Shown: in pieces, positions 2,055-64,000 of the stretch | How positions within the stretch are numbered: position 1 is the first letter of the stretch | Layout of the letters: the number at the start of each line of letters is the position of its first letter | Assembly: GCA_963712295.1 (NCBI GenBank) | Contig: CAVQHM010000029.1 | Span: forward strand, 63,704 to 127,703 | Reading direction: 5' to 3' | Origin: an uncultured Acidobacteriaceae bacterium | Lineage (GTDB): Bacteria > Acidobacteriota > Terriglobia > Terriglobales > Acidobacteriaceae | Length of the DNA stretch: 64,000 bases | Notes under the pieces: generated by a model | The model's database searches: none | Seen by the model: the letters and a program-made list of their open reading frames with translations, nothing else | What the model was told of the DNA's origin: nothing | Program-made: the position numbers and the translations under genes

Positions 2055-2096
2055 GAAGAACTCTTCGGCGAACTCGGCGTCTCGGCGGTGAAAATC
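2055..2096. repeat. Family F repeat (GAACTCGGCGTCTCGGCGGTGAA type) abutting the ddl stop
   Basis: Related copies lie at 3363..3405 (opposite orientation), 15285..15418 and 43749..43785. Confidence 0.7.
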
Positions 2097-3298
2097 TACC
2101 GGCTGTACTGATTCCGCTTCTTGTCCTCGTGCCGCTCGATACCCAACTGGATCAGCCGGTCGATCAATTCGGGATACGGCACGCCCGTCGCCGCCCACAG
2201 CTTCGGATACATGCTGATTGCGGTGAAGCCCGGCATGGTGTTGATTTCATTGACAAAAATCCTGCGGGATTTGGGGTCCATCAGAAAATCGACGCGCGCC
2301 AGGCCGGTGCAATCGACCGCTTGAAATGCCGCGATCGCCAGCCGCTGCACCGTTTTCATCTCCGCTTTTGTGATCTTCGCGGGAATGATCCCTTCCGAGC
2401 CCTCCGCCAGATACTTTGCGTCGTAGTCGTAGAACTCCTTGCAGGGAACGATTTCTCCCGCAACCGATGCTTTGGGATCGTCGTTGCCGAGCACCGCGCA
2501 CTCGATCTCGCGTGCCCTGTTCTTCTTTCCGCCAACCCCTTCTTCAATCACGATCTTGCGATCGAACTTTGCCGCTTCCGCGATGGCCGGGCCGAGTTCC
2601 TTCCGATCGTGCGCCTTCGAGATCCCTACCGACGACCCCAGGTTTGCCGGCTTCACGAAGACGGGATACTTCAGCTTGCCCTCCACCAGCCTTTCCACTT
2701 TCCTGGGCTCGCGCTCGAATTGGCCGCGCAACACGGTCGCGTGTTTCACGATGGGCAATCCGGCCGCGCGGAACAAAGACTTCATAATGTCCTTATCCAT
2801 GCCCGCGGAGGAGCCGAGCACGCCCGCTCCAACATAGGCGATGTCAGCCAGTTCGAGCAGGCCCTGAATCGTGCCATCTTCACCGAAGGTCCCGTGGAGC
2901 ACGGGAAAAATAACATCGACGTTGATGGCGCGATCGGCGGCGCGCCGCAGATTCGCGTCGGTCTGGAAGGGCGCAAGTCCGGCGTCGCGCCGCGACGGTT
3001 CGGGAGGAACCACCACCGACTCGCCCGTGGCCAGCAACGCTGCGCCCGGAGTAGCCCCCGGATCGCCCGCGCGAAGTTGCGTAGTTCGTGTGGCGCGGGC
3101 GCCCCCGCCCGCGTCTCCCTTCAGCAATCTCTCGGCGTGTTCCGCCGTGAGCCATCGGCCGTCTTTCGTGATGCCGATGGGAACCACTTCGTATCTTGTT
3201 TTATCGATTGCGTTCAGAACGGAAGCCGCCGACAGCAGCGACACTTCATGCTCGCCGCTGCGTCCGCCAAAGAGGATGCCAACCCGAAGTTTTGCCAT
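2096..3298 (-). CDS. ddl: D-alanine--D-alanine ligase (long form, with low-complexity insertion)
   Basis: N-terminus [27 protein letters not shown] and an ATP-grasp C-terminal half ([20 protein letters not shown]). 400 aa. Confidence 0.9.
3087..3116. repeat. Family E GC-rich palindrome inside the ddl reading frame
   Basis: CGTGTGGCGCGGGCGCCCCCGCCCGCGT with stem CGCGGGCG/CGCCCGCG. The 28-nt core is identical to the intergenic copy at 13522..13549. Confidence 0.85.
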
Positions 3299-8296: not shown

Positions 8297-8324
8297 GGGG
8301 GAGTCCTGCTAAACATCTCATCAT

Positions 8325-8403
8325 TGTCATCCTGAGCGAAGCGAAGGATCTGCTTTTTGCTGGCGCAGGAGACAGCAGGTCCTTCGCTTCGCTCAGGATG
8401 ACA
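8325..8403. repeat. Family B hairpin (TGTCATCCTGAGCGAAGCGAAGGA ... TCCTTCGCTTCGCTCAGGATGACA)
   Basis: Long inverted repeat between convergent genes. Related copies at 37460..37539, 60548..60577 (half copy) and 63079..63138 (half copy). Confidence 0.85.
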
Positions 8404-11735: not shown

Positions 11736-13472
11736 CAGTAACCTACCGCCTTCCCATTGTTCCGTCCGTCGCTGGCCCCGAGTCGCTCGCCGGTTTTGGG
11801 GTCAATCATGATGCACTCTCCGTCTCCCCAGAAATGCTCGACCTTCAGCTTGTGCCCTTTGGAACGCAGAACATTCATTGTATCGGGAGAGAGGCGGTCC
11901 TCCACGAAAATCTCATCGGGGAGCCACTGATGATGAAACCGCGGTGCGTTGACGGCTTCCTGAATGTCGAGCGAGAAATCGACGACACCGATGAGGATAT
12001 TGGCGACGGTGGTGATAATGGTGGGGCCGCCGGGCGAGCCGAGAACCAGGAAGAGCTTGCCGTCTTTGAGCACGATAGTAGGCGTCATGGCGGAAAGCGG
12101 CCGCTTGCCGGGGCCGATGGCGTTAGCTGGACCCTGGATCAGACCGTAAGTATTGGGGACACCTTGTTTGGCGGCGAAGTCGTCCATCTCGTCGTTGAGC
12201 AGGAAGCCAAGGCCCTCGGCGGTGACGCGGGAGCCGAAAGAGTCGTTGAGCGTCGTGGTGACCGAAACCGCATTGCCGTCGGCGTCGACGACGGAATAGT
12301 GCGTGGTGTTCTCCGGTTCGCGAATGGCGGCGACCCGCGACTGGGCAACGCGCTCCAGTTCAGCGAAGGCCGGACGTTTCAGGTCCTTGCTCACGCTGGC
12401 GTGGGCGGGATCGATGGAGTCGCGCCATGCGGCCGCGTACTTCTTGTCGATGAGCTGCGCGACAGGCACTTTGGCAAAATCGGGATCGCCCATGAAGTCG
12501 GTGCGATCGTAGAAGGCGCGGCGAAACGCTTCGGCTTCGAGGTGAATCGCGCCGGCGGAGCGGTTGCCCAATTTCGCGAGATCGAAACCTTCCAGGATGT
12601 TGAGGATTTCGATAAGCGCCACTCCGCCGGAAGATGGCGGCGGAGCGCTGATGATGTCGTAGCCGCGATAGGAGCCGCGAATGGGCTCGCGCTCCTTGAC
12701 CTCGTAGGCGGCGAGGTCGGCGGCGGTGACCAGGCCTCCACCTTTGTGGATGGCTGCGGCCAGTTCACGAGCCATGGCACCGTGGTAGAAGTCGTCGGGA
12801 TTTTTGGCGATGCGCTCGAGTGTGCGGGCAAGTTCAGGCTGCTTGAATACCTCGCCGGGCTGGTAGTAGTTTCCGTCTGCGCTGGAAAATGCGTTTCGAT
12901 TCGGAAAACTCGCTGAGGTACTCGTCTTTTTTCAAATCTTGTGTATCTTCATAGGCCAGCGGGAAGCCCTCGCGGGCCAGCTTGATGGCGGGAGCGATTA
13001 CCTTTTCCAGCGACAGCTTGCCATATTTCTTTTCCGCGTAAACCAGTCCGGCAACCGAGCCGGGGACGCCTACGGACCTGTATCCGACGACGCTGGAACC
13101 CTTGTTGGAGTCTGGGAGAACGTTGCCCTGAGCGTCCAGATACATGTTTTCGGTGGCCGCGGCGGGCGCCTTTTCTCGGAAGTCGATGAAATGAATTTCG
13201 CCGTTGGCGCTGCGGAGAAGAAGGAAACCGCCTCCCCCAAGATTTCCGGCTTGGGGGTGAACGACGGCCAGTGCGAAGCCGGTGGCGACGGCGGCGTCGA
13301 CGGCATTGCCTCCGGATTGCAACATCTCAACCCCGGCGCGCGAGGCAAGCTCGTGGACGCTGGTGACGATGGCGTGCGGAGCGTGCGTCGGGCGCAACGG
13401 CGCGGCCGAGGCGGTCGAGGCTAGTAGAGCACACAGGCTGCAGAGGATCAGTAGAGTACGTTGAATGTGCAT
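11735..13472 (-). CDS. ggt: Gamma-glutamyltransferase; frame broken by one extra base in an A/T run near 12887..12890
   Basis: The N-terminal ORF 12834..13472 has a signal peptide and GGNAVDAAVA. The C-terminal ORF 11735..12775 has the catalytic-Thr region ENTTHYSVVDADGNAVS. The intervening SADGNYYQPGEVFKQPELARTLERIAKNPDDFYHGA is readable in the C-terminal frame. Confidence 0.88.
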
Positions 13473-15241: not shown

Positions 15242-17134
15242 TTACTCCCTGAAAGCCTGTAGCTTGAATTCTAGCGAAAAGTGGAATTTACCGCAGAGGA
15301 CGCTGAGTACGCGGGGTAAACATAGGATTGTAGGGGCGGTAGCCTCATCAGTCAAAGGGGCACAGGTGAAATCAAATACAAGAGAATCTCTGCGTACTCG
15401 GCGTTCTCCGCGGTTCAAGCGCTTTGGCCTGCCCCAGCCACCGCCGCCAGGCGATTCGATTCGCACTCTTTCCCCGGAACGCAGGCGAACGCTGGTCTTG
15501 CCGGGGATTTCTTCCGCAGAACCGTCCCTTCGGATGATCAGGGTGCGGCCGGGAGCGCCGTCGGCTCCTCCGGCTAGGCCGTAGGGCCCGCGAGAACGCC
15601 GGTCGGCGAGCAGGGTGACCTGGGCATCGGTTAAGACTTCGATTTCCCGCACGATTCCATCGCCACCGGCGTGAAGGCCCGCGCCTCCACTTTGGGAGCG
15701 AAAAGAATATTGCCGCAGGCGCACCGGGTACGCGTATTCCAGGGCCTCGGCGGGAGTATTCAGGGAATTGGTCATGTGGGTGTGGACGCCCGAGACCCCG
15801 TCCTTATTGGGGCGCGCGCCCATGCCCCCGGCGATGGTCTCGTAATAAGCGAAGGGCTGCTGGGAGCGCGGGTCATTCTTCAGAGAATCAGTGCTCAGAG
15901 AATCAGTGCTTCGTGAATCCGTGCCGCCGATGGTGAGGTTGTTCATGGTGCCGGCGGCGGCGGCCGGGATGCGCTCGGGAATCGCCTGCGCCAGCGCTTT
16001 CAGCAGCACGTCGACAATCCGCTGCGAAGTTTCCACGTTGCCACCCGCTACGGCGGCCGGAGGCCTGGCATTAACCACGGTTCCCGATGGCGCGACGACG
16101 CGGATGGGACGCATCAGACCGGAGGTCGCGGGCACGTCTTCGCGGAGCAGGCAACGAAAGACGTAGAAGCAAGCCGAGTACGTAATGGCTTCGACCGCAT
16201 TGATCGCGCCTTCGACTTGAGGGTCGCTGCCAGTGAAGTCGATGGTGACTTGGGCGGCGGGCGGCTTCTTGCTCGATGCTGAGGGAGACGCGGTAAGCCG
16301 CGTCTCTACAGGGGATTTCTTGACGGGCGCGACTTGGATCGTCACGGCTATGCGCACGGGTTTGTCTTCGACGCCGTCGTCATCGAGAAAGTCTTCGGCC
16401 TGGTAGCGGCCCGGCGGGATAGTACGCAGAAAGGCTCGCATCATTTCTTCGGAATAGACCAGCAGATCGGCGGCGGCCTTTTTCACGCGGGCGATTCCGT
16501 AGCGGTCGCAGATTTCACGAAGGCGCTGGGCGCCGGTCTGGCAAGCGGCGATCTGGGCTCCGAGATCGCCTTCGCGTTCTTCGGGAGTGCGGACGTTGTT
16601 GAGGAGCAGGGCCAGCACATCGGCAACCAGCTTTCCGCCGCGCATAATCTTAACCGGCGGAATGCGGAGCCCTTCCTGGTAGATTTCGCGGCAGGGACCC
16701 ATCGAGCCAGGGTAAGTTCCGCCCACATCGGCATGGTGAGCGCGAGAAGCGACGTAGAAGTCGGGCGTTGTTGTGTGGGGCGGGCGCCCTCGCCCGCCGC
16801 TCTTGCCTTTGCGGATGTACACCGGCATGACCAACGTGATGTCAGGCAGGTGCGTACCGCCGCGAAACGGATCATTGAGCATAACGACGTCGCCGGGTTC
16901 GAGCTCACACTGTTCCACCGCCGCGGCGACCGACATAGGCATGGAGCCCAGGTGTACCGGCATGTGATCGCCCATGGCGATGACCTGGCCCGCGGAATCG
17001 AAGACGGCGCACGAGTAGTCGCGGCGCTCTTTAATGTTGGGAGAGAACGAGGTGCGGCGCAGGGCCGCCCCCATCTCCTCGGCGATTGAATGGTAAAGGT
17101 TCTTGAAAACCTCGAGTTCGACGGGATCACGCAT
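15242..17134 (-). CDS. hyuB: Hydantoinase B/oxoprolinase family protein (C-terminal tail is translated repeat)
   Basis: MRDPVELEVFKNLYHSIAEEMGAALRRTSFSPNIKERRDYSCAVFD and PGGGGWG near the usual C-terminus. The last 55 codons or so run through the family F inverted repeat. Confidence 0.85.
   Translation of the reverse strand: MRDPVELEVFKNLYHSIAEEMGAALRRTSFSPNIKERRDYSCAVFDSAGQVIAMGDHMPVHLGSMPMSVAAAVEQCELEPGDVVMLNDPFRGGTHLPDITLVMPVYIRKGKSGGRGRPPHTTTPDFYVASRAHHADVGGTYPGSMGPCREIYQEGLRIPPVKIMRGGKLVADVLALLLNNVRTPEEREGDLGAQIAACQTGAQRLREICDRYGIARVKKAAADLLVYSEEMMRAFLRTIPPGRYQAEDFLDDDGVEDKPVRIAVTIQVAPVKKSPVETRLTASPSASSKKPPAAQVTIDFTGSDPQVEGAINAVEAITYSACFYVFRCLLREDVPATSGLMRPIRVVAPSGTVVNARPPAAVAGGNVETSQRIVDVLLKALAQAIPERIPAAAAGTMNNLTIGGTDSRSTDSLSTDSLKNDPRSQQPFAYYETIAGGMGARPNKDGVSGVHTHMTNSLNTPAEALEYAYPVRLRQYSFRSQSGGAGLHAGGDGIVREIEVLTDAQVTLLADRRSRGPYGLAGGADGAPGRTLIIRRDGSAEEIPGKTSVRLRSGERVRIESPGGGGWGRPKRLNRGERRVRRDSLVFDFTCAPLTDEATAPTILCLPRVLSVLCGKFHFSLEFKLQAFRE
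15285..15418. repeat. Family F inverted pair inside the 3' end of the hyuB ORF
   Basis: TACCGCAGAGGACGCTGAGTACGC (15288..) and GCGTACTCGGCGTTCTCCGCGGT (..15412) are inverted copies. Confidence 0.7.
15881..15925. repeat. 15-bp tandem repeat x3 in frame in hyuB
   Basis: CAGAGAATCAGTGCT x2 plus degenerate TCGTGAATCCGTGCC, encoding TDSRS TDSLS TDSLK. Confidence 0.85.
16771..16797. repeat. Family E palindrome inside the hyuB reading frame
   Basis: TGTGTGGGGCGGGCGCCCTCGCCCGCC, translated as part of GKSGGRGRPPHTTTP. Confidence 0.8.
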
Positions 17135-17164
17135 GTGAAAAAAGAGTGTACGCCAAAACGTACA

Positions 17165-17309
17165 GGAGGTCAGAGGTCAGATTGCAGAGGTTAACCAACA
17201 TCTGCCGCACAGGGAACTGGGGAACCGAGAATTGGCTTTCCACTTCTGCAATCTGACTTCTGCAATTCTGGTTTCACCTCTGCAATCTGACCTCGTACCT
17301 CTGACCTCC
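17165..17309. repeat. Family D hairpin in the divergent hyuB/sppA intergenic region
   Basis: Arms 17165..17191 and 17276..17309, plus an extra internal arm copy at 17241..17270. Confidence 0.85.
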
Positions 17310-22524: not shown

Positions 22525-22528
22525 AGAC

Positions 22529-22624
22529 GAGGTCAGAGGTGAGAGGTCAGATTGCAGAGGTGAAATCCCAGGCGGTTTGTGTGATGGGTTTTAACCTCTG
22601 CAATCTGACCTCTTACCTCTGACC
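22529..22624. repeat. Family D hairpin between the divergent kinase and kdpD-N genes
   Basis: Arms 22529..22561 and 22594..22624. Confidence 0.85.
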
Positions 22625-22688
22625 TTGCTCACCCATGACCTCACTCACACATCGACAAACTCGAATCTCTCAACGACAATAATCGGCG

Positions 22689-24528: not shown

Positions 24529-24583
24529 CGCTAGGGAGAGCCGCCCCCGGCTGTCCAAGCCGAGCAACGCGCGGCAGCCGCCG
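24529..24583. repeat. Family E bipartite element after kdpE
   Basis: CGCTAGGGAGAGCCGCCCCCGGCTGTCCAAGCCGAGC... resembles the CGTAGGGACAGCCGCCCCCGGCTGTCCAGC units at 54177 and 56406. Confidence 0.7.
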
Positions 24584-37400: not shown

Positions 37401-37459
37401 GAACGGGCTTCTAGCTTTTGGCTCTTAGCTTGTAGCTCTTATCGACCCCTTTTATGAAT

Positions 37460-37539
37460 TGTCATCCTGAGCCAAGCGAAGGACCTGCTTTCTTGCGTAC
37501 AAAAGGAAAAGCAGGTCCTTCGCTTCGCTCAGGATGACA
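37460..37539. repeat. Family B hairpin between purM and purN
   Basis: TGTCATCCTGAGCCAAGCGAAGGACCTGC ... GCAGGTCCTTCGCTTCGCTCAGGATGACA. Confidence 0.85.
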
Positions 37540-37558: not shown

Positions 37559-38188
37559 ATGAAGAATCTCGGCATTCTGCTTTCCGGACGCGGTTCTAAT
37601 TTTGTGGCCATCGCCGACAGCGTTGCGGCTGGCCGGATTCCTGATGCTCGCATCGCGGTCGTGATTTCGAATCGTTCCGACGCTCCCGGCGTCGAAACCG
37701 CCCGTCAGCGCGGCCTCAACGCGCTCGTCGTTGCGTCGAAAGGCAAGCCGCGCGAGCAGCACGACCGCGAAGTTGTGGCGGCGCTCCTCGACAACCAAGT
37801 CGATCTCATCTGCCTCGCCGGTTACATGCGCCTGCTCTCGCCCTGGTTCGTGCGGCAGTTCCCGGCAAAAATTCTCAACATTCATCCGTCCTTGCTGCCC
37901 GCGTTTCCCGGCTTGGAAGCGCAGCAGCAGGCCTTCGCCTATGGGGTGAAAGTTTCAGGCTGCACGGTGCATTTCGTGGATGAGGAGCTCGATCACGGCG
38001 CCATTATTGTGCAGAAAACTGTCCCTGTGCTGGACTCCGACGACGAGCACACGCTGGCGGCACGAATTCTCGAACAGGAACACATCGCCTACAGCGAAGC
38101 GATAAAGATTGTGCTGGAAGAAAACTTCGAAATTGCCGGTAGGCGAATGGTGAAAGGTCAGAGGTCAGAGGTCAGATTGCAGAAGTAA
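37559..38188 (+). CDS. purN: Phosphoribosylglycinamide formyltransferase (C-terminal 10 residues or so encoded by a family D repeat)
   Basis: LGILLSGRGSNF and NIHPSLLPAFPG. The tail KGQRSEVRLQK is translated repeat. Confidence 0.88.
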   Translation: MKNLGILLSGRGSNFVAIADSVAAGRIPDARIAVVISNRSDAPGVETARQRGLNALVVASKGKPREQHDREVVAALLDNQVDLICLAGYMRLLSPWFVRQFPAKILNIHPSLLPAFPGLEAQQQAFAYGVKVSGCTVHFVDEELDHGAIIVQKTVPVLDSDDEHTLAARILEQEHIAYSEAIKIVLEENFEIAGRRMVKGQRSEVRLQK

Positions 38189-38246
38189 AATCCGAAATTC
38201 ACGATGGGAGGTTTTCACCTCTGCAATCTGACCTCAGACCTCTGCA
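38156..38246. repeat. Family D hairpin between convergent purN and a hypothetical gene
   Basis: Arms 38156..38187 and 38215..38246. Confidence 0.85.
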
Positions 38247-38249
38247 ATC

Positions 38250-42523: not shown

Positions 42524-42667
42524 ACAGCTTGCGGGAAAAGGCCGATGTTGTACTTGATTTTGGGTGGCGCGGCGGTTTACCGCTGCGGTAAGTGCATTGT
42601 TTTGAATCCGGCTTTAGCCGCTGAGGGCCCCTTGCCGCATGCAAAGCGACTCTTCCCGTAGCCCGCC
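42524..42667 (+). repeat. Family A element, copy 2
   Basis: Carries the invariant 40-nt core. The hairpin variant is GCGGCGGTTTACCGCTGC. Confidence 0.85.
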
Positions 42668-44828: not shown

Positions 44829-45219
44829 ACTGTGCTTTTACTCATCCCCTGCCGGCTGGCAAACAATTCTGCCTCACTGCCGCCGGAATTGCACCCGAGA
44901 ATTGCGACACGGTCCCGATAGACCACGAAGGCCACAAAGGAGCCCGATGGGAACTCTAGAATTCCCGACCGGACGATGCACCAGCCGCGAAGCGGCGGAA
45001 CAGGAAAGCCCGGCACGGCAGTGCCGGGTAGGCGGAAGTAGAACCAACCGAGTCCCGCGAGGGACGGAACCTGTACGACACAGACTCCGGACGGACGTCC
45101 GAGTTCTCGCCACACTCTTCACCGCTGCGGCAACTGGATTATTGTGGATACCGGCTTTGACATCGCCGGAATCGCGGATGTTAAGAAGCTTTTCTACCTC
45201 TGCCATCTACAATTGACGA

Positions 45220-45664
45220 ATGTGTGCACCGGGAACGCCAGCCCACAGCCGCATCCTGGCCCTCGATGTCGGCTCGAAAAGAATCGGGGTCGCCGTCTCC
45301 GATCCCTTGGGCATCACGGCGCAGGGGTTGGATACGATCCAGCGTCAGAACAAACGCCGCGATCATGGAGGCCCTGGGACAAGTGCTGGCGAAATACGAA
45401 GTCCGGGAGATTGTGGTCGGCCTGCCCCTGCGCTTAAGCGGCGCGGAAGGAACGCAATCGGAAAAGATGCGCCGTTTCGCCGACGATCTGCGCGCTCAAT
45501 TCGGTCTGACCGTCCATCTATGGGACGAGCGTTGGACCTCAACTCAAGCCAACCGCCTGTTGCGCGAAACCGATCTTTCGATCCAGAAGCGAGGGCAAGC
45601 AGTAGACCGGATGGCCGCCATCTTAATTCTTCAATCCTGGCTCGAAGCGCACCCCGCTCACTGA
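45220..45664 (+). CDS. ruvX: Holliday junction resolvase RuvX (YqgF); frame broken by one extra base near 45350..45360
   Basis: Frame 1 reads [36 protein letters not shown]. Frame 2 reads [43 protein letters not shown]...DERWTS. Confidence 0.85.
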
Positions 45665-48504: not shown

Positions 48505-48645
48505 CACAGGCTGCGGAAAAACGCGATCTTGCATTTGATTTTGGGTGGCGCAGCGCTTCAGCGCTGCGGTAAGTGCATTGTTTTGAATCCGGCTTTAGCC
48601 GCTGAGGGCACGGCTCTAGCTCGGAAACGACTTTTCCGCAGCCTG
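48505..48645 (+). repeat. Family A element, copy 3, flanked by a 34-bp direct duplication
   Basis: Invariant core present. CCAGTCGTGCCATCAGGCC(T/G)AAGAAAGAAGCCCG occurs at 48467..48500 and 48648..48681. Confidence 0.85.
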
Positions 48646-48843
48646 TTCCAGTCGTGCCATCAGGCCGAAGAAAGAAGCCCGGCTTCAGCCGCTGAGGGCC
48701 AACGATCCTCTTAGGACGGAGCAGCTTTTCCAGGCCCCGCTTTGTCCGACTTACACGCAGGACGAGCGGGGCCCGCGCACCCCAAACTTGCGCGGGCCCC
48801 GGCCACCCGTCTTCCGGGAGAAACTTGGACGACGTGAAAGCGG

Positions 48844-50190
48844 TCAGCGCGCCAGCAGCATCACCGATTCGATGTGAAACGTCTGGGGGAAGAGATCGAA
48901 TAAGTGTGCTTCCTCGATGTGGTAGCCGGCCGCCAGAAGGGGGGCGAGATCCCTGGCCAGCGTCGCCGGATCGCACGAAACGTACCGGACTCGGGGCGCT
49001 CCGAGTTCCACCAGAGAACGGATCACCGCTTTGCCGGCGCCAGCGCGGGGAGGGTCCAGGACAACCAAATCAGTCCGATTTCGCACTGGCCGGCTTCGCA
49101 GATCATCGCTCCTAAGGTAATCCTCGGTTCGCGCGCCGACCGCTTTCACGTTCGCAGGCACATTCTGCACCAAGTCCCCGTGCGCTGTCTGTGACGCCTC
49201 TACAGCAAAAATGTGACGAAAACTGCCAGCCAAGGCCGCCGAAAATAGTCCCACACCGGCATAGAGGTCGAGTGCGAGGTCTCCGCCGGCGTTGCCGGTC
49301 ACGACCGAAACCAGGTCGTCGATCAGATGGCGGTTCACCTGAAAAAAGGCTCCCGCGCTGACCTGATATTCGTGCTCCTTGGTTTGATAGCCAATGGTTT
49401 GATAGGCAATGGTTCGATAGCGGATCGCCTTCGCGCCCGATTGCGCCAGCGCCTTCGGATCGGGCATTTCATCTTCTTCCACCCGCCGCCGCGAAGCGAA
49501 GAACGTCACGCCGCTGATTTCCGGCAACTCGCGCTGAATCGCCTCCGCCCAGCGCAACAGGTCTCTCTTGTCTGCCTCGCGTCCGCAAAAAGCCCAGGCC
49601 AGCAAATGCTCGTCGGCCGCATCCGCGAACAGCTCGATCTCTTCGACCGCTGCCGGGCAGTTCAATCCGCCGAGCTCAACCAAGCGCGCCATCATCCGAT
49701 TGAGCAGCGGCGAGCTGATCGGACATTCGCCGATGGGAAGAAACTCGTGCGAGCCGAACCGGAAGTATCCCAGCGCAAATCCGAACAATGTCCGCACCTG
49801 CAGCCGCGTCCGGTTGCGATAGTTCCACGGAGGAGAAGGGTGCAACCGAATCTCAGCCGTCAGCTCAATCTTCGCGATCCGCCGCAGCGTCTCGTGCAGA
49901 ATTCCAGCTTTGAACTCCAGTTGCCGCTCGTACGGGATGTGCTGGTAATGGCATCCGCCACATTGGCGAAAGTACGTGCAGCGAGCCTCGACGCGATCAG
50001 ACGACGCTTCGATCAACCGCGCAACGGAGCCGCGCGCGAACCCAGGTTTTTCTAGCCCAATCTCGGCCTCAACTTTTTCTCCCGGCAAAACAAACGGCAC
50101 AAACACCGCCATGCTGCGCCCATCCGCGCCGGGAGCCGTCCGTGCCAGCCCGTCACCGCCGTAAATCAGTTTTTCGATGGAAAGAAGCAT
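48844..50190 (-). CDS. rlmD: 23S rRNA (uracil-5)-methyltransferase RlmD/RumA family
   Basis: TRAM-like N-terminus, the Fe-S motif CTYFRQCGGCHYQH, SAM motifs LDLYAGVGLF and VLDPPRAG, and a catalytic Cys in YVSCDPATLARD. Confidence 0.85.
   Translation of the reverse strand: MLLSIEKLIYGGDGLARTAPGADGRSMAVFVPFVLPGEKVEAEIGLEKPGFARGSVARLIEASSDRVEARCTYFRQCGGCHYQHIPYERQLEFKAGILHETLRRIAKIELTAEIRLHPSPPWNYRNRTRLQVRTLFGFALGYFRFGSHEFLPIGECPISSPLLNRMMARLVELGGLNCPAAVEEIELFADAADEHLLAWAFCGREADKRDLLRWAEAIQRELPEISGVTFFASRRRVEEDEMPDPKALAQSGAKAIRYRTIAYQTIGYQTKEHEYQVSAGAFFQVNRHLIDDLVSVVTGNAGGDLALDLYAGVGLFSAALAGSFRHIFAVEASQTAHGDLVQNVPANVKAVGARTEDYLRSDDLRSRPVRNRTDLVVLDPPRAGAGKAVIRSLVELGAPRVRYVSCDPATLARDLAPLLAAGYHIEEAHLFDLFPQTFHIESVMLLAR
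49381..49425. repeat. 15-bp tandem repeat x3 in frame in rlmD
   Basis: GGTTTGATAGCCAAT, GGTTTGATAGGCAAT, GGTTCGATAGCGGAT, encoding IRYRT IAYQT IGYQT on the minus strand. Confidence 0.85.
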
Positions 50191-52042: not shown

Positions 52043-53134
52043 GATCCTCACCGTCCCACTAACCACCGTCCGCAACCCCTCCGCCGTCCTGACGCGCAAG
52101 AACCCGCGCTCATCCAACCCCTCGGTAACGCCCTCCAGGCCGCCGTTCTCCTCGATCGTCACATTGCTGCCGCGCACCGACGAAGAACTCGCCTCGAACC
52201 GGCGCAAGATCCCCGCCCGCGCTCCCGCATTTGCCACCAAACCCCGATACTCCCGGTCGAGCGATTTTAGCAAAGCGGCGCAGAGTTCCACGCGCGACCA
52301 CTCCGTGCCGGTCTCGATCCGCAACGAGGTCGCAATCTCGCGCAGCTCCGCCGGAAACTTCACCTGATTCACGTTGATCCCGACGCCCACGACCAGGTGG
52401 CGCACTCGCGTCACTTCGGCATTCATCTCCGTAAGAATGCCGCAGAACTTCTTTCCGCCAAGCAGCAGGTCGTTGGGCCATTTCAGATCGACGGACAGCT
52501 GCGGAGCAATCTCCGCCACCGCCGAGCGTATCGCCAGTCCCGCAGCCAGCGAAAAAATGAGCGCATCCGAGGGCGGCATCGCCGGACGCAGGATCGCCGA
52601 GCAGTAGATTCCCGCCGACCGCGCCGAATGCCAGGTGTGCGCGCCGCGCCCCCGTCCCGCCAGCTGTTCTTCGGCAAGAAAGACGCTGCCTTCGGGCGCG
52701 CCCTCCATCGCGGCTCGCATCGCCTCCAAATTGGTCGAACCGATCTTGTAATAATGATGAATCTGCTTGGCGCTGATTTCGCGACTAGGTTTTGGGTAGG
52801 GCACGGCTTCAGCCGTGCCGTCCGCGGTCTCGAGAGACGTGGGCTTCAGCCCCTGAGGGACACGCCTTCCGCCCCCGCCAAAGATCGTCCCCTTCAACGA
52901 CGGCGCCAACATCTCCGGCAACAACAGGTCTGGGACCGCCCGCAGTTGATAGCCGGTTGCCGGATGTCCAGCGACATCCACGCCCAACCCGCGCAGTTGC
53001 TGAATCAGCCGCCAGACTTCCGACCGGCTAGTGCCAATCTCCTCGGCAATCTTCGTGCCGCTGACGACAACGATAGCGTGGTCCATCAGCAGCCGCACAA
53101 TGCGGCCCAGGCGAACGTCAGTCGCCTTGTGCAC
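52028..53134 (-). CDS. birA: Bifunctional biotin--[acetyl-CoA-carboxylase] ligase / biotin operon repressor
   Basis: N-terminal HTH (ISGTKIAEEIGTSRSEVWRLIQQLRGLG) and the ligase motif GRGRGAHTWHS. The start is uncertain (GTG at 53134 or further upstream). Confidence 0.85.
   Translation of the reverse strand: MHKATDVRLGRIVRLLMDHAIVVVSGTKIAEEIGTSRSEVWRLIQQLRGLGVDVAGHPATGYQLRAVPDLLLPEMLAPSLKGTIFGGGGRRVPQGLKPTSLETADGTAEAVPYPKPSREISAKQIHHYYKIGSTNLEAMRAAMEGAPEGSVFLAEEQLAGRGRGAHTWHSARSAGIYCSAILRPAMPPSDALIFSLAAGLAIRSAVAEIAPQLSVDLKWPNDLLLGGKKFCGILTEMNAEVTRVRHLVVGVGINVNQVKFPAELREIATSLRIETGTEWSRVELCAALLKSLDREYRGLVANAGARAGILRRFEASSSSVRGSNVTIEENGGLEGVTEGLDERGFLRVRTAEGLRTVVSGTVRIIGNL
52794..52859. repeat. 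Hairpin pair (GCACGGCTTCAGCCGTGC and GGGCTTCAGCCCC) inside the birA reading frame
   Basis: Translated as GLKPTSLETADGTAEAVPYP, between the HTH and ligase domains. Confidence 0.8.
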
Positions 53135-53199
53135 CGACGGCAGGCTGCGAGTTTTGGTGGAAGTGGAGATGGAGGGAATTATAACCAGTCGCTGGTGAT

Positions 53200-53255
53200 C
53201 GTGTGGGGACGGGCGCCCTCGCCCGTCCAGCCGAGCGCAGCTCGGCAGCCGCCGC
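53200..53255. repeat. Family E bipartite element
   Basis: CGTGTGGGGAC-GGGCGCCCTCGCCC-GTCC-AGC-CGAGCGCAGCTCGG-CAGC. Confidence 0.85.
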
Positions 53256-53258
53256 ACC

Positions 53259-54137
53259 CTAAGCCGGCATCACGCGCATACTCATATCCACCGCCGTCGA
53301 GGAATGCGTCAGCGCCCCGACCGAAATGAAGTCCACGCCCGTCTCCGCGTACGACCGCACGTTCTCCAGATTGATTCCGCCCGCGCACTCCAGCGGAATC
53401 CTCCGCGGCTGGTGCGAACAAATCTCGACTGCCTTGCGCACGTCTTCAACGTTCATATTGTCGAGCAGGATCGCCTCCGCCCCGTGGCCCAGCGCCTGCT
53501 GCAGTTCTTCGAGCGACCGCACTTCAATCTCGATCGGCTGACGCCCGCGCCGGTTGCGGATCGCCCGCTCCAGCGCCGGAATCGCGCCCCCGGCCAGCGC
53601 AATATGATTGTTCTTAATCAACACGCCGTCGGAAAGATCCAGTCGGTGATTCTGCCCGCCGCCGCAGCGCACCGCGTATTTATCAATCACGCGCAGTCCC
53701 GGCGCCGTCTTGCGCGTATCGAGAATCCGCACGCGCGTGTCTTCCACCGCATCGACAAACTTGCGGGTCGTGGTCGCGATTCCGGCCATGCGTTGCAGAA
53801 AATTAAGAATCACCCGCTCGCACGATAGAACCACCCGCGCGTTATGCCGGATCACCGCGATTTGTTGCCCCGGTTTCACGCGGATCCCATCAAACATCGA
53901 AGGGTGGCTAGTCACGTCGTAATGCGAAGTGACGGCCCCGTCGAGCGCCGCATAGACGTCAAGAATCCGCGGCACGCATCCCAGACCAGCCAGTATGCAC
54001 TCCTGCTTGGCGATGACCGTCGCCGAGGCCCGCTGGTTAGGATCGATGCAGGCATAGCTGGTAGCATCGCGCGTGGCCCGATCTTCGGTCAGCGCGTTCT
54101 CCAAAATCGCCGTAATGCGTCGTGAATTCCAGTCCAT
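53259..54137 (-). CDS. nadC: Nicotinate-nucleotide diphosphorylase (carboxylating), quinolinate phosphoribosyltransferase
   Basis: 292 aa. RILDTRKTAPGLR, KNNHIALAG, and a C-terminal GVDFISVGALTHS. Confidence 0.88.
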   Translation of the reverse strand: MDWNSRRITAILENALTEDRATRDATSYACIDPNQRASATVIAKQECILAGLGCVPRILDVYAALDGAVTSHYDVTSHPSMFDGIRVKPGQQIAVIRHNARVVLSCERVILNFLQRMAGIATTTRKFVDAVEDTRVRILDTRKTAPGLRVIDKYAVRCGGGQNHRLDLSDGVLIKNNHIALAGGAIPALERAIRNRRGRQPIEIEVRSLEELQQALGHGAEAILLDNMNVEDVRKAVEICSHQPRRIPLECAGGINLENVRSYAETGVDFISVGALTHSSTAVDMSMRVMPA

Positions 54138-54142
54138 GATCG

Positions 54143-54224
54143 CGTAGGGACGGACGCATTCGTCCGTCCAACCTCACGTAGGGACAGCCGCCCTCGGCTG
54201 TCCAGCGGCTCGAAGAGCCGCAGC
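54143..54224. repeat. Two adjacent family E units between nadC and valS
   Basis: CGTAGGGACGGACGCATTCGTCCGTCC, and CGTAGGGACAGCCGCCCTCGGCTGTCCAGCGGCTCGAAGAGCCGCAGC. Confidence 0.85.
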
Positions 54225-54232
54225 TCACTGTA

Positions 54233-57107
54233 TTACGAGCAGCCCAACTCTTTCATCTTGGCGAGGATTTTTTCCCGCAGCACCTTCAACTCTTCCGCCC
54301 GCGCCGTCAGCCCCTCCACGACCTTCACCGGCGCCTTCGCCAGAAACTGTTCGTTCGAAAGCTGCCGCTGCCCGTTGGCGATCTCCTTCTCGATCTTCTC
54401 CAACTCCTTCTTCAGTCGCTCACATTCCGCCGCAACGTCGATCTTCTTTTCGTATAGCGCATGCACATCAAACCGCGAAGTACTGCGAGCCCCCGGCAGG
54501 TTTGCCAGCGACCTTTCCACGAATGTGACCTTCTCCACACTCCCCAGCCGCTCGATCGCCGCCAGATTCCTCTCGAGCATCGCGCGAATCTCCGGATTCA
54601 TGCGCAAACACCTCGATCGGCACTTTGATCTTAGGCTCGACTTTCAATTCCGCCCGCAGATTGCGCACCGCAACGATCAGGTCCTGCAGGATCGCCATCT
54701 CCGTTTCAGCGCCCAGGTCAATCTGCGTTTCATCCGCGGCCGGATAGGCCGCCAGCGCAATCGACTTCAGCGGAGGCGTGCCATCGTACATCGCCTGCCA
54801 GATTTCTTCCGTGATAAACGGCATCACCGGATGCAGCAGCCGCAAAGAAGCCTCAAACAAATTGACGAGATTCGCACATGCGACTCGCGCCGCGATCGTG
54901 TGGGGACGGGGCTCTGCCCCGTCCAGGGCGGGCCGGAGAACCGCCTCCACACTTTCCTCATTCAGCCGTGGCTTGATCAGTTCCAGGTACCAGTCGCAAA
55001 ACTCGCCCCAGAAAAAATCGTAGATGCGAGTCGCGGCCTCATCGAAGCGATAAGTCTCCAGCGACTCGTTCACGTCGCGAGTCGCGCGATTGAACCGCGA
55101 GAGAATCCACCGGTCCTCAAGCGAACCAACCTCAAACCCGGCAACGCCCACGTAGGGGCGGACGCATTCGTCCGCCCCGGGCCGCAGGCCCGCGTCGATC
55201 CGGTCCACATTCATGAACATCAACCGAGCCGCATTCCATATCTTATTGGCAAAATTCCGATACCCCGCCGTGCGGCTCTCGCTAAACGCGATATCGGTCC
55301 CCGGCGCCGCCATCGCCGCCAGGGTAAAGCGCGTCGCATCGGTTCCGTACTTCCCGATGACTTCAATCGGATCGAGCACGTTCCCCTTCGTCTTCGACAT
55401 TTTCTGCCGGTCCGCATCGCGCACCAGCGCGTGGATATAAACTTCGCGAAAGGGAACGCTCGCGCGCAGCGCATCTTCTTCCGACCCCAAACTTGCCTCA
55501 GAACGCTGGCCCGGCCTGTGCGGCGGCATCATGAACCAGCATCCCAGCATGATCATGCGCGCCACCCAGAAAAACAGAATGTCAAAGCCGGTGATCATCA
55601 GCGAATTGGGATAGAAAACTTCCTCGTCGCGAGTCGCCGCAGGCCAGCCCAAAGTAGTGAACGGCAGCAACCCCGAAGAAAACCAAGTGTCAAGCACGTC
55701 CGCATCCTGCTCCAGGTTCTTGCTGCCGCATTTGCAAGCCGCAGGAGCCTCGCGCGCCACGATCACTTCCCCGCAAGCGCCGCAATACCAAGCCGGGATC
55801 CGGTGTCCCCACCACAACTGCCGCGAGATGCACCAGTCGTGGATGTTCCGCATCCAGTTCAAATAAATCTGCCCGTAATTTTCCGGCGTGAACCGTATGT
55901 ATCCCTTCTCGACAACCTCAATCGCCCGCTTCGCCAGCGGCGCAATCTTGACGAACCACTGCGTCGAGAGCCGCGGCTCGACAATCGTGCCCGAGCGGTC
56001 GCACTTGCCCAAAGCAATCGTGTAATCCTTGGTGCCCACGAGGTACCCTTGCTCCGCCAGGTCTTCCACCACATGCGCGCGCGCCGCAAAGCGATCCAGC
56101 CCCGCGTAACGGCCGGCATTCGCATTCATCTTCGAGTGCTCGTCAATCACTTCGATCTGCGGCAGGTTGTGTCGCAGTCCGGCCAGGAAGTCGTTGGGAT
56201 CATGCGCCGGCGTGACCTTCACCGCGCCCGTGCCAAACTCCGGCTGGGCCAGTTCGTCGGCGATGATCGGAATCTCCCGATTCATCAGCGGCAGCATCAC
56301 ATGCTTACCCAGCAGATGCGTGTAGCGTTCGTCTTTAGGATTGACCGCGACCGCCGTGTCGCCCAACATCGTCTCCGGACGCGTAGTCGCCACGGTAATA
56401 AATTGCGTAGGGACAGCCGCCCCCGGCTGTCCAGCGGCGCGAGGCGCCGCAGCCTCTGTGTCCACCACCGGATACCGGATCTCATACAGCTTGCCCGCGA
56501 TGTCCTCGTGCTTCACTTCGAGGTCCGAGATCGCCGTGCCGCAGTCGGAACACCAGTTCACGATGTACTTCCCGCGATAGATCAGCCCCTCTTCATACAG
56601 CCGCACGAACACTTCCTTCACCGCGTGTGACAGCCTGTCGTCCATGGTGAAGTATTCCCGGCTCCAATCGACCGAAGCGCCCAGCCGTTTCATCTGATCG
56701 AGAATCGCGCTGCCGTACTCGCGCCGCCATTCCCAGACGCGCTCCAGAAACTTCTCGCGCCCCATCTCGCGCCGCTTCTTGCCTTCTTTCAAAAGCTGGC
56801 GCTCCACCAGCATCTGCGTCGCGATGCCGGCGTGGTCGGTCCCCGGCAGCCAGAGCGAGACGAAGCCGCGCATGCGCTGCCAGCGCACCATGACGTCCAT
56901 CTGCGTCTGTTCCATCATGTGCCCCATGTGCAGCCGCCCGGTCACATTGGGAGGAGGCAACAACAGCGTGAACACAGGACGCACATCTTTTTCGGACGAA
57001 CTGGGCGGAGGCGTCTCCACCTGAAACAGTTTTTCCCGGACCCAATACTCGGCCCAGCGCGCTTCAATCGCGCCCGGTTCGTAAGCTTTCGGCAATTCGT
57101 GCGGCAT
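54233..57107 (-). CDS. valS: Valine--tRNA ligase; frame broken by one extra base near 54600..54607
   Basis: HIGH region PPPNVTGRLHMGH and KMSKS region KMSKTKGN. ORF 54233..54607 encodes the C-terminal coiled coil (ERLKKELEKIEKEIANGQRQLSNEQFLAKAP) in the adjacent frame. Confidence 0.9.
54897..54934. repeat. Family E unit inside the valS frame
   Basis: CGTGTGGGGACGGGGCTCTGCCCCGTCCAGGGCGGGCC, translated as RPALDGAEPRPHTI. Confidence 0.8.
55151..55183. repeat. Family E unit inside the valS frame
   Basis: CGTAGGGGCGGACGCATTCGTCCGCCCCGGGCC, translated as PGADECVRPYV. Confidence 0.8.
56406..56453. repeat. Family E bipartite unit inside the valS frame
   Basis: CGTAGGGACAGCCGCCCCCGGCTGTCCAGCGGCGCGAGGCGCCGCAGC, translated as AAAPRAAGQPGAAVPT just before the conserved ITVATTRPETMLGD. 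Confidence 0.85.
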
Positions 57108-57120
57108 CTTGTGTGGCTCA

Positions 57121-57166
57121 CGTGGGGACGGACGCATTCGTCCGTCCCAGCCAGGCATAGCCTGGC
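57121..57166. repeat. Family E unit just upstream of the valS start
   Basis: CGTGGGGACGGACGCATTCGTCCGTCCCAGCCAGGCATAGCCTGGC. Confidence 0.8.
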
Positions 57167-58246
57167 AGATTTTCCCGGCACCATGAGGGAATCTTTGATC
57201 TTACAGTCGCAAGAAAAGAAGGGTCAAACGCGCGAGGGGGTAATACGCACTGAGGGGATTTTACTACCCCCCCCACTGACCTTGCACCCTGAAGGGCCGG
57301 GGGGCGCGCGACGGGGGTGGGTGGTTGCGCTGGCTAGGTGGGCGGGGTAAAGCGCTCGTCTGAAGCTGCCAAGAGTCTGCGCCCGCCTGAAGAGGCGGCC
57401 GCCGTCGAGTTCGTATTCAAGTACGGTCTGGCGCTGACAGCAATGGGCTTACTAGATTCTGTGAAAAGAACGCCCGAGTGGGCCGACAATGAGGCTGCCT
57501 GCCGAGAACATATCCGGCAGAGCGCGGCTGGGGTCGCACGTGTGATTGTCCCCTTGTGCCTTTCGTTGCCAAAGACGCTGCCGAAGCTTGCCCACACCTG
57601 AGTCGTAGTGACCCAACCCACCCAACCTTTTTCATGGGAAGCCCGGGGACGGGGAAGCCACAACCAGCCGAGATCGAAATCCATTGACTTAAGAACCGTC
57701 GTGCGCAACGATAGAGATCGGATTGGGGCAGTTTCGAGGTGTATCTGTCGACCTAGACGGCCCTCGAAGCTGCCCCGAACCAATTTTCGGGGCTCTTTGA
57801 TAATGCAAGTCGTTGGTTCTTAAAGACTTTACCCGCAAGTCCTTTAAACCCAAAGATCTGGCGGGAGCCACCTCCCAAGTCTTTGATTCCCAAAGACCGA
57901 GCGATGGGGGGAGGGGGTACCCTTCTAACTAAGTCAGCTATGTCAAACCGGTGAATAGCCAAGAAAACTCGGACAGTCGCAGCGAAGCCAAAAATAATGA
58001 AGGCTTAGTTAAATCGATTCACACGCCGCAAATGATCGTCGTCGAAGCAAATCGGGAAATTCGCCGATGCACTTCCCTCAAGAAAGGTTGCAAATAACCG
58101 ATACCAGCGGTAGTATGACTTTGGATGCTGTTTTTCGCGTCCACCCTTATCCGAACAAACACAACTTCCAGGTAGAAACGCAACCCTAGGTTTTAGACCA
58201 AATCTAAAGGGGCGCCCAAGGCCCCGGTGCAATTCGGAGAGAATGC

Positions 58247-60500: not shown

Positions 60501-60547
60501 TTATGTTGGGTTCGATGTCTGGGATATTCTTTAGAACCTTTATGAAT

Positions 60548-60577
60548 TGTCATCCTGAGCGAAGCGAAGGACCTGCT
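60548..60577. repeat. Family B half copy inside the long ORF 59603..62293
   Basis: TGTCATCCTGAGCGAAGCGAAGGACCTGCT, with no right arm nearby. Confidence 0.8.
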
Positions 60578-60622
60578 GTTTGTCGGCGGTCGGCGAAAAC
60601 TGCGAATTCCTCAACGCGAGCG

Positions 60623-62448: not shown

Positions 62449-62546
62449 AGTTGAGTTTGCCTGTACTTGCGGACCCGTTCTGGGGCCGCGCCGCGTTTCC
62501 GGTCAGAAGCCGCAGCGGGAAAACAGCAAGCATACTTAGGGTATCT

Positions 62547-62594
62547 GCCGAGCTGCGCTCGGTTTGGACGGGCGAGGTCGCCCGTCCCCACACG
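62547..62594. repeat. Family E bipartite element (inverted orientation) in the rplU leader
   Basis: GCCGAGCTGCGCTCGG-TTT-GGACGGGCGAGGTCGCCCGTCCCCACACG. Confidence 0.8.

Positions 62595-63537: not shown

Positions 63538-64000
<463 letters not shown>

Follow-up and report, generated by a model that had tools for sequence, protein, structure and literature searches.

How can the gene of an essential aminoacyl-tRNA synthetase carry, within its reading frame, the same GC-rich palindromes that lie in the intergenic DNA around it? This question is raised by valS, which encodes valyl-tRNA synthetase (ValRS, valine-tRNA ligase), in a stretch of 64,000 nt from an uncultured Acidobacteriaceae bacterium (contig CAVQHM010000029.1), referred to here as the window. 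A preliminary description of this DNA had placed three hairpins inside valS at 54897, 55151 and 56406 and related forms between genes at 54143..54224 and 57121, and all of them are present at these coordinates, the intragenic ones with the peptides quoted for them. The three segments, named here sites 3, 2 and 1 in this order, belong to a dispersed family of two-hairpin elements of the repetitive extragenic palindrome (REP) type, whose presence differs between closely related valS genes, whose stems are conserved and whose intragenic copies favour certain reading frames. We propose that they are copies of a non-autonomous mobile element, which would have inserted into permissive loops of the enzyme and be translated as part of it.

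The valS product comprises ~957 aa once a 1-nt frameshift near 54596 is repaired. It aligns with the ValRS of Thermus thermophilus (PDB 1GAX) with E = 4e-206 and is 82-91% identical to 120 ValRS of Terriglobales metagenomes or metagenome-assembled genomes (MAGs). The genome had been described as acidobacterial in appearance, in agreement with 80 valS loci from a genome scan, which all belong to MAGs of Terriglobales, Acidobacteriaceae, Ca. Sulfotelmatobacter or Ca. Angelobacter; the nearest are found in the first three, and the best reaches 86% identity to the valS of the window.

Ten copies of the valS type occur in the window, three of them within coding sequence (Table 1). The element opens with a (C/T)GT(A/G)G head and a perfect GC-rich stem of 9-10 bp with a loop of 3-4 nt; the linker AGC then usually joins this hairpin to a shorter one, which has a stem of 5-7 bp and a loop of 3 nt, and GCAG(C) forms the tail. 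The parts add up to 45-48 nt, and CGTAG, CGTGG or TGTGG stands immediately 5' of the stem in 10/10 copies. At site 2, a CGTAG head is followed by a 10-bp hairpin (GGGGCGGACG-CATT-CGTCCGCCCC) and a small hairpin (GGGCC-GCA-GGCCC), and site 3 combines the head CGTGTGGGG with the hairpin GGACGGGGC-TCT-GCCCCGTCC and a second hairpin. The block inserted at site 3 measures 45 nt (54902-54946) and yields ...EAVLRPALDGAEPRPH(T); examples of junction peptides encoded across the inserts are YPVVDTEAAAPR, AAGQPGAAVPTQFITVATTR and IDAGLRPGADECVRPYVGVAGFEVGSLEDR. In a blastn search of the window, site 1 matched the intergenic unit at 54177-54224 in 44/48 positions (E = 1.6e-13), site 2 matched the copies at 54143 (23/24, E = 2e-6) and 57119 (24/26, E = 4e-5), and the head of site 3 matched 53198 and 62596 in 16/16 positions (E = 6e-4). 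The likeness of intragenic and intergenic copies is thus far above chance, and the valS segments are copies of the intergenic hairpin, as had been proposed. If all GT(A/G)G-headed hairpins are counted, the window holds ~17-19, seven of which lie inside the four genes valS, ddl, hyuB and birA.

Equivalent residues at all three sites in ValRS from unrelated phyla, which the preliminary description had named as evidence against its reading, were not found in Thermus, whose sequence is gapped opposite all three segments, and most orthologues of the same order are without inserts 1 and 3, which are present in ~7/121 and ~14/121 close orthologues, respectively. Site 1 amounts to exactly 48 additional nt (16 codons) compared to the loci L002 and L007 and lies between a Glu and a Gln codon. 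At site 3, the 45-nt block, which begins straight after a native CGTGT, is missing in L001, L003, L005, L006 and L007, and the gap is longer in L002; the orthologues compared here have 80-86% identity. Alignments of filled with empty alleles revealed neither target duplications nor terminal inverted repeats at the junctions of sites 1 and 3. In the empty alleles, CGT is already found at the junction of both sites, so that the head may in part stem from the target; targeting of the 3' side of a short motif, known from IS200/IS605 elements, would agree with this. The turnover is visible even among the nearest relatives with 5-6% amino-acid divergence of the backbone (P0001, P0004, P0006, P0016), where presence or type differs at all three sites: P0006 is without inserts 1 and 3, another palindrome occupies site 1 in P0004 and P0016, and another occupies site 2 in P0001, P0006 and P0016.

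The loop around site 2 (loop 2) ranges in 81 genomes from 45 nt in the Ca. Angelobacter type, which is without a hairpin, to 216 nt, and all lengths are multiples of three. Its palindromes are many and varied; most are antisense to valS and encode peptides ending in ...RP(H/Y)T/V, and several stand in sense orientation with peptides starting GFVWG/D, which correspond to TTCGTGTGGGG read forwards. Close relatives keep the small hairpin of loop 2 (GGCCTGCGGCCC, peptide GLRP) and differ in the large one, and the site 3 peptide AGLRPALDGAEPRPHT recurs at site 2 in other genomes. Site 2 is a hotspot. Among orthologues, the loops vary from 4 to 24 residues at site 1 and from 15 to 72 at site 2, and this natural variation in length is the strongest evidence that the ValRS loops would be permissive. 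An exact search for subtype A (CGTAGGGACGGACGCATTCGTCCGTCC) gave no match in the 80 related loci. In 2/29 genomes the valS hairpin recurred identically at another point of the surrounding 20-kb locus, a stretch that offers too little context for this number to be informative.

A wider sample was obtained with the pattern CGTAGGGAC-N14-GTCCAGC-N13-GCAG, in which nothing but head, linker, tail and the four outer pairs of the stem is fixed, and which yielded at least 121 copies on at least 120 metagenomic contigs. Copies were classified as intragenic if an open reading frame (ORF) extended over at least 50 codons on either side of the element and its G+C content by codon position followed GC3 > GC1 > GC2. 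In the window, this classifier agreed with Pfam for the hairpins in ddl, hyuB, birA and valS, and it missed a palindrome in a response regulator, which is not of the REP type; before the GC1 > GC2 rule was added, it accepted three spurious ORFs. Among the matches listed, 33 of the 109 evaluable copies (~30%) are intragenic, as opposed to 50% of random 47-nt windows from the same contigs, so that the element is only mildly depleted from genes. Pfam searches with ten of the hosts placed the element inside or between domains, with one ambiguous case, in class II ribonucleotide reductase (NrdJ), UvrD, queuine tRNA-ribosyltransferase (TGT, twice), UbiD, MnmE, a HemN-like enzyme, a GHMP kinase and a molybdopterin oxidoreductase, and the site 1 insert also occurs in a further valS, that of L182.

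The reading of these copies is biased. Of the antisense copies among the matches listed, 14/18 encode xAELRSAGQPxAAVPT, three LDSRGRLSLR and one DESVRPYV; of the sense copies, 14/15 encode VGTAALGxPAERSSA and one RRDSRPRLSS, and in the third sense frame the head contributes its TAG. The element is free of stop codons in five of six frames, and the preferred frames are poor in Arg, Cys, Trp and Leu. It had been suggested that intragenic copies be checked for lengths divisible by three and for one translated frame; the first part is borne out by loop 2, and for the second two frames dominate, one per orientation. A preference for benign frames together with lengths in multiples of three is expected of inserts that are translated and pass a selective filter as peptides, and such constraints would not apply to segments excised from the RNA, which argues that the valS inserts are translated. 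That insertions of this repeat family are tolerated in frame is, in our estimation, highly probable.

Three further genes of the window contain GT(A/G)G-headed hairpins in frame (Table 1). At the position of its hairpin, ddl encodes ~39 additional residues compared to the Ddl of S. aureus, and birA encodes, at 52740-52860 on the minus strand, ~36 additional residues, GGGRRVPQGLKPTSLETADGTAEAVPYPKPSREISAKQ, which separate the helix-turn-helix (HTH) from the catalytic domain. The hairpins are also delimited more narrowly, at 3094-3113 in ddl and at 16779-16798 and 16285-16306 in hyuB. At about residues 405-420, hyuB moreover contains an insert made of short tandem TDSLS repeats. Two palindromes were rejected as ordinary coding palindromes not of the REP type, one at 24155 in the response regulator and one with GTGG in the HTH of birA, and an N-terminal extension of birA through the copy at 53202 was judged spurious.

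In the search for a transposase, no Y1_Tnp domain was found in ~50 long ORFs (>= 180 aa) of the window, and 1.55 Mb of related sequence gave no match to HUH/Y motifs written as regular expressions. A phmmer search with E. coli YafM, a REP-associated tyrosine transposase (RAYT), used as a probe only, led to three ORFs with a Y1_Tnp domain confirmed by Pfam (L001:11787-12356, L057:2778-3314 and L039:1106-2071). In L001, which is among the closest relatives, the RAYT lies between an rlmD-like gene and comEC and is flanked by inverted GGGAAGGGCACGAC-TTCA-GTCGTGCC hairpins. The window retains the ends of this element at the syntenic position (Table 1), 92-95% identical to L001, and a 140-nt repeat family (1812-1951, 42526-42665, 48507-48646 and 63549-63688), which belongs to the hairpin class of the L001 RAYT flanks and appears to derive from the ends of the RAYT element. 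RAYTs of the L001 type have 1371 homologues in the protein collection, some of which JGI has named "REP-associated tyrosine transposase", and three of them that were fetched with their context (L201-L203) are flanked, like that of L001, by inverted GGGAAGGGCACGRC-TTCA hairpins; the birA insert of the window, too, belongs to this sister class. The RAYTs of L039 and L057 are flanked by other repeats. RAYT-REP systems are thus active in this clade, and one of them has seeded the in-frame insert in birA. Since the RAYTs found flank the sister class, we infer the transposase step for the valS type, and the chance that a RAYT mobilises this class is about even. As side observations, a different palindromic repeat (...PLKPTDGLNGPPVLL...) has been inserted, as four tandem copies and in frame, into the RAYT gene of L039, and the comEC of L001 contains the in-frame GTGG-headed hairpin DGTRGTGESPVPTFAL at L001:12971-12993.

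The valS hairpins could also have spread without a dedicated transposase, through gene conversion or template switching between nearby hairpins in the course of replication or repair, together with homologous recombination of valS alleles. Nearby copies are indeed the most alike, as the two hairpin subtypes within valS are also the two that flank it and were not found elsewhere in the window; the small GLRP hairpin of loop 2 stays while the large one is exchanged, the inserts form a mosaic on the ValRS tree, and a cognate RAYT was not found in 1.55-2.4 Mb of related sequence. However, the clean insertions of 45 and 48 nt into hairpin-free loops at sites 3 and 1 require integration de novo, the conserved GT(A/G)G head is a hallmark of recognition by RAYTs (PMC6006769), and RAYTs of the clade that possess flanking hairpins of their own have seeded in-frame copies, as in birA. 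We therefore regard a spread of this kind as improbable, though the best placed of the alternatives.

The conservation of the hairpins is pronounced. In 1.55 Mb of the clade, 325 perfect hairpins have stems of 8 bp or more, and their most frequent 4-nt flanks are GTGG (46) and GTAG (24), with an expectation of ~2.5 each for an even use of the 256 tetranucleotides over 650 flanks. The inner stem positions left free by the metagenome pattern pair completely (5/5) in 109/121 copies for hairpin 1 and in 101/121 for hairpin 2 among the matches listed, with several complementary variants. In the 86 distinct copies among these matches, 97.3% of the cells are paired compared to 88.5% in shuffles (reached in 0/500), and changes on both sides affect 112 cells as opposed to 31; slid controls gave only 17-43% pairing. 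G.T and A.C mismatches in the stems, 20 against 12, are without strand bias, so that there is no sign of selection on one strand at the RNA level. The bases around the element are not random in the metagenomic loci L081-L200 (C in 76% at -2, A in 66% at -1, C in 57% at +1) and may either belong to the element or mark a preferred target. A role of the 5' flank TCA as a TGA stop codon for antisense ORFs was rejected, since the flank proved to be NCA and none of the long ORFs has its end at this point.

Such stems might be kept in valS for a nucleic-acid role, for example translational or transcriptional pausing at domain boundaries that helps a large multidomain enzyme to fold, stabilisation of the mRNA or binding of gyrase or nucleoid proteins; selection would then account for the occupancy of loop 2 in nearly all genomes. 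The compensatory changes in the stems, an intact hairpin in loop 2 in most of the 81 genomes despite its differing sequence and the position of sites 1 and 2 at domain junctions would fit such a role. The same element is nevertheless found in unrelated proteins and in intergenic DNA, nearly identical ValRS differ in its presence and type, relatives of the Ca. Angelobacter type and Thermus manage without any insert, and some copies are decaying (L006, L007). Moreover, the mismatches without strand bias do not point to the RNA, and recently transposed copies would show conserved stems in any case. We consider this role unlikely, slightly more so than a spread without transposase.

With regard to the protein, the presumed domains are those of the Thermus structure, transferred through the 1GAX alignment. 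Site 1 lies two residues ahead of ITVATTRPET, in line with the earlier statement that the last segment directly precedes a conserved block. We take this block to be the Thr-rich motif of the editing domain, with site 1 in a strand-loop-strand leading into that domain; site 2 comes after the KMSKS region, presumably where the catalytic core passes into the helical anticodon-binding domain, and site 3 is assumed to lie between helices of this domain. An AlphaFold model calculated with 70 close homologues reached a mean pLDDT (the confidence score of the prediction) of 42, which, because the alignment is shallow, is too poor for mapping or a fold search. In this model the three inserts are predicted as coil with pLDDT < 50, between the strands 208-215 and 235-241, the helices 614-632 and 663-684, and the helices 688-715 and 738-761. 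The proximity of site 1 to the TTRPET motif and of sites 2 and 3 to the anticodon-binding domain, in or near which they lie, could be taken to mean that the peptides were recruited for a function specific to ValRS, such as an interaction surface or a contact with the tRNA. This is very unlikely, however, as identical peptides occur in ribonucleotide reductase, UvrD, TGT, UbiD and MnmE, the inserts are absent or replaced in the nearest relatives, and the conservation follows the DNA hairpin and not the peptide, with loop frame and orientation differing between genomes.

The elements keep the valS frame, as had been claimed; the assembled gene as a whole is not intact, since one surplus base near 54596 breaks its frame ~300 nt further downstream than site 3. 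The window reads GAA-T-CCG at this point, where relatives encode ...EVFAHEPEIR..., and the C-terminal coiled coil thereby falls into a separate ORF (54233-54607). Similarly, ggt is frameshifted at ~12875-12882 and split into the ORFs 11735-12775 and 12834-13472, and ruvX is frameshifted at ~45360-45366, with its first ~38 residues in frame and the true stop near 45663. The related ValRS P0021 has a frameshift of its own, which differs from that of the window. The frameshifts of valS, ggt and ruvX are probably assembly indels unrelated to the hairpin inserts. The presence of such errors in the window might suggest that the inserts themselves are artefacts of assembly or binning, with repeat reads mis-joined into valS, a possibility we practically dismiss, because the same inserts recur at the same codons and always in frame in independent JGI, ENA and NCBI assemblies (P0001, P0002, P0017, P0019, L182 and others).

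The explanation we favour, to which we assign a probability of about three in four including translation and tolerance by the loops, is as follows. The three valS segments would be copies of a non-autonomous, REP-type palindromic mobile element that was inserted without target duplication and is now transcribed and translated as part of ValRS. The inserts would persist due to a length in multiples of three, five stop-free frames out of six and the fact that three permissive loops were hit, namely the putative beta-hairpin before the TTRPET motif of the editing domain, the loop between the core and the anticodon-binding domain and an inter-helix loop in the latter. Selection would act on the encoded peptide, favouring frames with small and polar residues, and not on a function specific to ValRS. 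Mobilisation may occur in trans by a HUH/Y1 transposase of the RAYT class acting on the single-stranded hairpin, and a short motif containing CGT is possibly targeted.

Several observations weigh against parts of this explanation. Its transposase step would lead one to expect RAYTs flanked by valS-type CGTAGGGAC hairpins, and none was found in 2.4 Mb of related sequence. Copies of the valS type stand alone or follow one another in direct tandem, as do 54143 and 54177, and do not form the inverted pairs known as REPINs. The patchy distribution of identical inserts on the ValRS tree could be due to recombination of alleles instead of repeated transposition and excision, and the suggested target motif is drawn from just two junctions. 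The placement in loops is weakly indicated by the gaps against 1GAX and a low-confidence AlphaFold model. Finally, the counts of intragenic copies include orthologous repeats of single insertion events; when these were collapsed by hand according to the flanking peptides, an estimated ~10/14 antisense and 8/9 sense events remained in the dominant frames, so that the bias persists.

In-frame palindromes have mainly passed for a peculiarity of Rickettsia, whose tiny intracellular populations would be under weak selection, so that such inserts could survive. Here, the same outcome is seen in free-living Terriglobales, which are abundant in soil and peat and presumably form large populations, and it affects essential enzymes (ValRS, ribonucleotide reductase, UvrD, TGT, MnmE and Ddl), with a turnover of inserts that outpaces 5% divergence of the protein. 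This constitutes a natural experiment on which loops of conserved enzymes bear 14-40 additional residues, and an example of selfish DNA shaping protein length. It also has practical consequences, since alignments of marker genes from Acidobacteriota contain non-homologous segments derived from hairpins, and recurring peptides can seed spurious homology. For the biology of REPs and RAYTs, it adds a large family of covarying elements outside the Proteobacteria. One might go further and suppose that the elements evolved compatibility with reading frames as a strategy of persistence in gene-dense genomes of free-living bacteria, with certain protein loops acting as landing pads. A unit length divisible by three, five stop-free frames and peptides rich in Ala, Gly, Pro, Ser and Thr fit this idea, which we put forward tentatively and consider rather doubtful. 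If it were true, coding DNA would be nearly as open to the element as intergenic DNA (30% vs 50% at random), the retention of the GLRP hairpin in loop 2 with serial replacement of the large one would amount to routine variation of loop length in essential proteins, and this generation of loop lengths would span a dominant order of soil bacteria.

The window contains further repeats. A long element starting with ATTGTCATCCTGAGCGAAGCGAAGGA(T/C)CTGC has copies at 8323-8400, 37458-37530 and 60546-60620, all intergenic, the first two of which are followed, after a spacer of 20-25 nt, by a perfect inverted copy that gives a stem of ~25 bp. The copy at 60546 ("VILSEAKDL" element) was considered as a protein insert and rejected, as it is intergenic and lies in a stop-free read-through ORF fusing two TldD/PmbA-like genes. 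A repeat family with GGTCAGAGGTCAGATTGCAGAGGT (17157-17307, 22527-22625 and 38138-38248, also 10819 and 50970) is likewise intergenic, and its members are paired with an inverted copy 30-100 nt away. At 5622-5945, five to six tandem units of 54 nt lie in long ORFs of both strands without a Pfam match, which possibly represent a repeat protein.

Table 1. Coordinates of valS, of the hairpin elements and of the RAYT remnant in the window.
Feature	Position	Strand	Remarks
valS (valine-tRNA ligase), host gene	54233..57107	(-)	ATG at 57107, TAA at 54233-54235
Site 1 element	56406..56453	(+), antisense to valS	full 48-nt two-hairpin unit CGTAGGGACAGCCGCCCCCGGCTGTCCAGCGGCGCGAGGCGCCGCAGC, peptide AAAPRAAGQPGAAVPT
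Site 2 element	55151..55192	(+), antisense to valS	CGTAGGGGCGGACGCATTCGTCCGCCCCGGGCCGCAGGCCCG, peptide GLRPGADECVRPYV
Site 3 element	54897..54946	(+), antisense to valS	CGTGTGGGGACGGGGCTCTGCCCCGTCCAGGGCGGGCCGGAGAACCGCCT, peptide (L)RPALDGAEPRPHT
Tandem intergenic pair, valS stop to nadC start	54143..54224	(+)	single hairpin 54143-54176 and 48-nt unit 54177-54224
Intergenic copy directly upstream of the valS start codon	57121..57168	(+)	
Intergenic copy, nadC/birA gap	53202..53249	(+)	GTGG-head variant
Same-family copy	62540..62591	(-)	
Diverged full-length copy	63783..63830	(-)	85% identical to site 1 element
Degenerate copy directly downstream of response-regulator gene	24532..24557	(+)	
In-frame GTGG-headed hairpin in ddl (2096-3298, minus strand)	3090..3113	(+)	host: Pfam D-Ala-D-Ala ligase
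In-frame GTGG-headed hairpin in hyuB/oxoprolinase (15242-17134, minus strand)	16775..16798	(+)	peptide GGRGRPPHTT
In-frame GTAG-headed hairpin in hyuB	16285..16309	(-)	other class, sense; peptide SPVETRLTASP
In-frame hairpin in birA	52796..52819	(+)	GGGTAG-GGCACGGC-TTCA-GCCGTGCC; RAYT-flanking class of relatives
RAYT element remnant ends	48646..48913	(-)	syntenic to L001 RAYT; ~595 nt gene body missing

Among known systems, the REPs are the closest. They comprise the GTAG/GTGG-tagged REPs with their RAYT (TnpA-REP) transposases (Nunvar 2010; Di Nocera 2013, PMC3733652; Quentin 2018, PMC6006769); in Pseudomonas the REPINs, inverted pairs of REPs, are regarded as the mobile unit. In the definition of PMC3733652 and PMC6006769, a tetranucleotide GTAG or GTGG precedes, by 0-2 nt, a fully paired, GC-rich basal stem that measures 7 bp or more and encloses a loop of 2-5 nt; the head degenerates to GTGG in Opitutus terrae (PMC3733652). 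The valS-type elements have such a head and stem-loop. They resemble REPs in the GT(A/G)G that immediately precedes a GC-rich hairpin (loop of 3-4 nt), in subfamilies with complementary stem changes, and in the occurrence of several classes per genome with occasional in-frame copies. Ten copies in 64 kb and at least 120 metagenomic contigs suggest that their copy number may also be high, and the clade contains RAYT genes, flanked by the sister hairpin class or by other repeats. Unlike REPs, which are single hairpins of 20-40 nt and overwhelmingly extragenic, the valS type is a composite two-hairpin unit of 45-48 nt and is not predominantly extragenic, with 3/10 copies in the window and ~30% of 109 metagenomic copies (among the matches listed) within genes, compared to 50% for random positions. 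In-frame intragenic REPs have been described in several species, of which X. oryzae, E. litoralis and S. alaskensis (genera Xanthomonas, Erythrobacter and Sphingopyxis) carry them in genes for tRNA synthetases, and O. terrae is the richest in in-frame REPs (PMC3733652). In that work, Acidobacteria are mentioned only for tyrosine transposases flanked by terminal inverted repeats and are not among the listed REP-bearing taxa.

The preliminary description had likened the valS segments to the Rickettsia palindromic elements (RPEs), which holds for their behaviour as in-frame, tolerated palindromes; with respect to the sequence class, they are of the REP type and not RPEs. RPEs measure ~100-150 bp and form the families RPE-1 to RPE-10, of which RPE-4 and RPE-6 are CGTC-tagged (Ogata 2000, as cited in PMC3733652 and PMC10969869), and R. 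conorii contains 44 copies, nearly half of them in frame in ORFs (PMC10969869). The valS element, with 45-48 nt and a GT(A/G)G head, differs in size and tag. Like RPEs, it lies in frame in unrelated housekeeping genes (valS, ddl, hyuB and birA in the window; those of NrdJ, UvrD, TGT, UbiD and MnmE elsewhere), where it encodes additional peptide segments in presumably surface-exposed positions, and its intragenic fraction is high. RPEs are confined to Rickettsia, which are obligately intracellular with small populations, and no transposase is known for them, whereas the valS type occurs in free-living soil bacteria.

Miniature inverted-repeat transposable elements with in-frame ORFs (ERIC, BOX, Correia/NEMIS and the QMITE of Coxiella; PMC3184786, PMC10969869) are likewise small and non-autonomous and can fuse with host ORFs; however, they measure 70-300 bp and possess terminal inverted repeats and target-site duplications, neither of which is seen at the valS junctions. 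The Acido-Lenti-1 RNA (Rfam RF01687) is an acidobacterial two-hairpin motif as well, whose first hairpin has 8 bp and a 4-nt loop and whose second has 5 bp and a 3-nt loop, but its spacer and conserved bases differ, and it did not match in 52500-57500 even at E = 10. No Rfam family matched the valS elements, either at gathering thresholds in the whole window or at E = 10 in 52.5-57.5 kb. The Rfam matches of the window are one tRNA and an Acido-Lenti-1 RNA at 44983-45028(-), which scores 48.8 bits against a gathering threshold of 37 and lies ~190 nt upstream of ruvX. In the literature searched, nothing specific was found on REPs of Acidobacteria or on palindromes inserted in frame. The valS type is thus a new REP-type family in a new phylum, while the principle of in-frame REPs has already been published, and its interest lies in the two-hairpin unit, the high intragenic fraction in free-living bacteria, the frame bias and the rapid turnover in hotspot loops of an essential enzyme.

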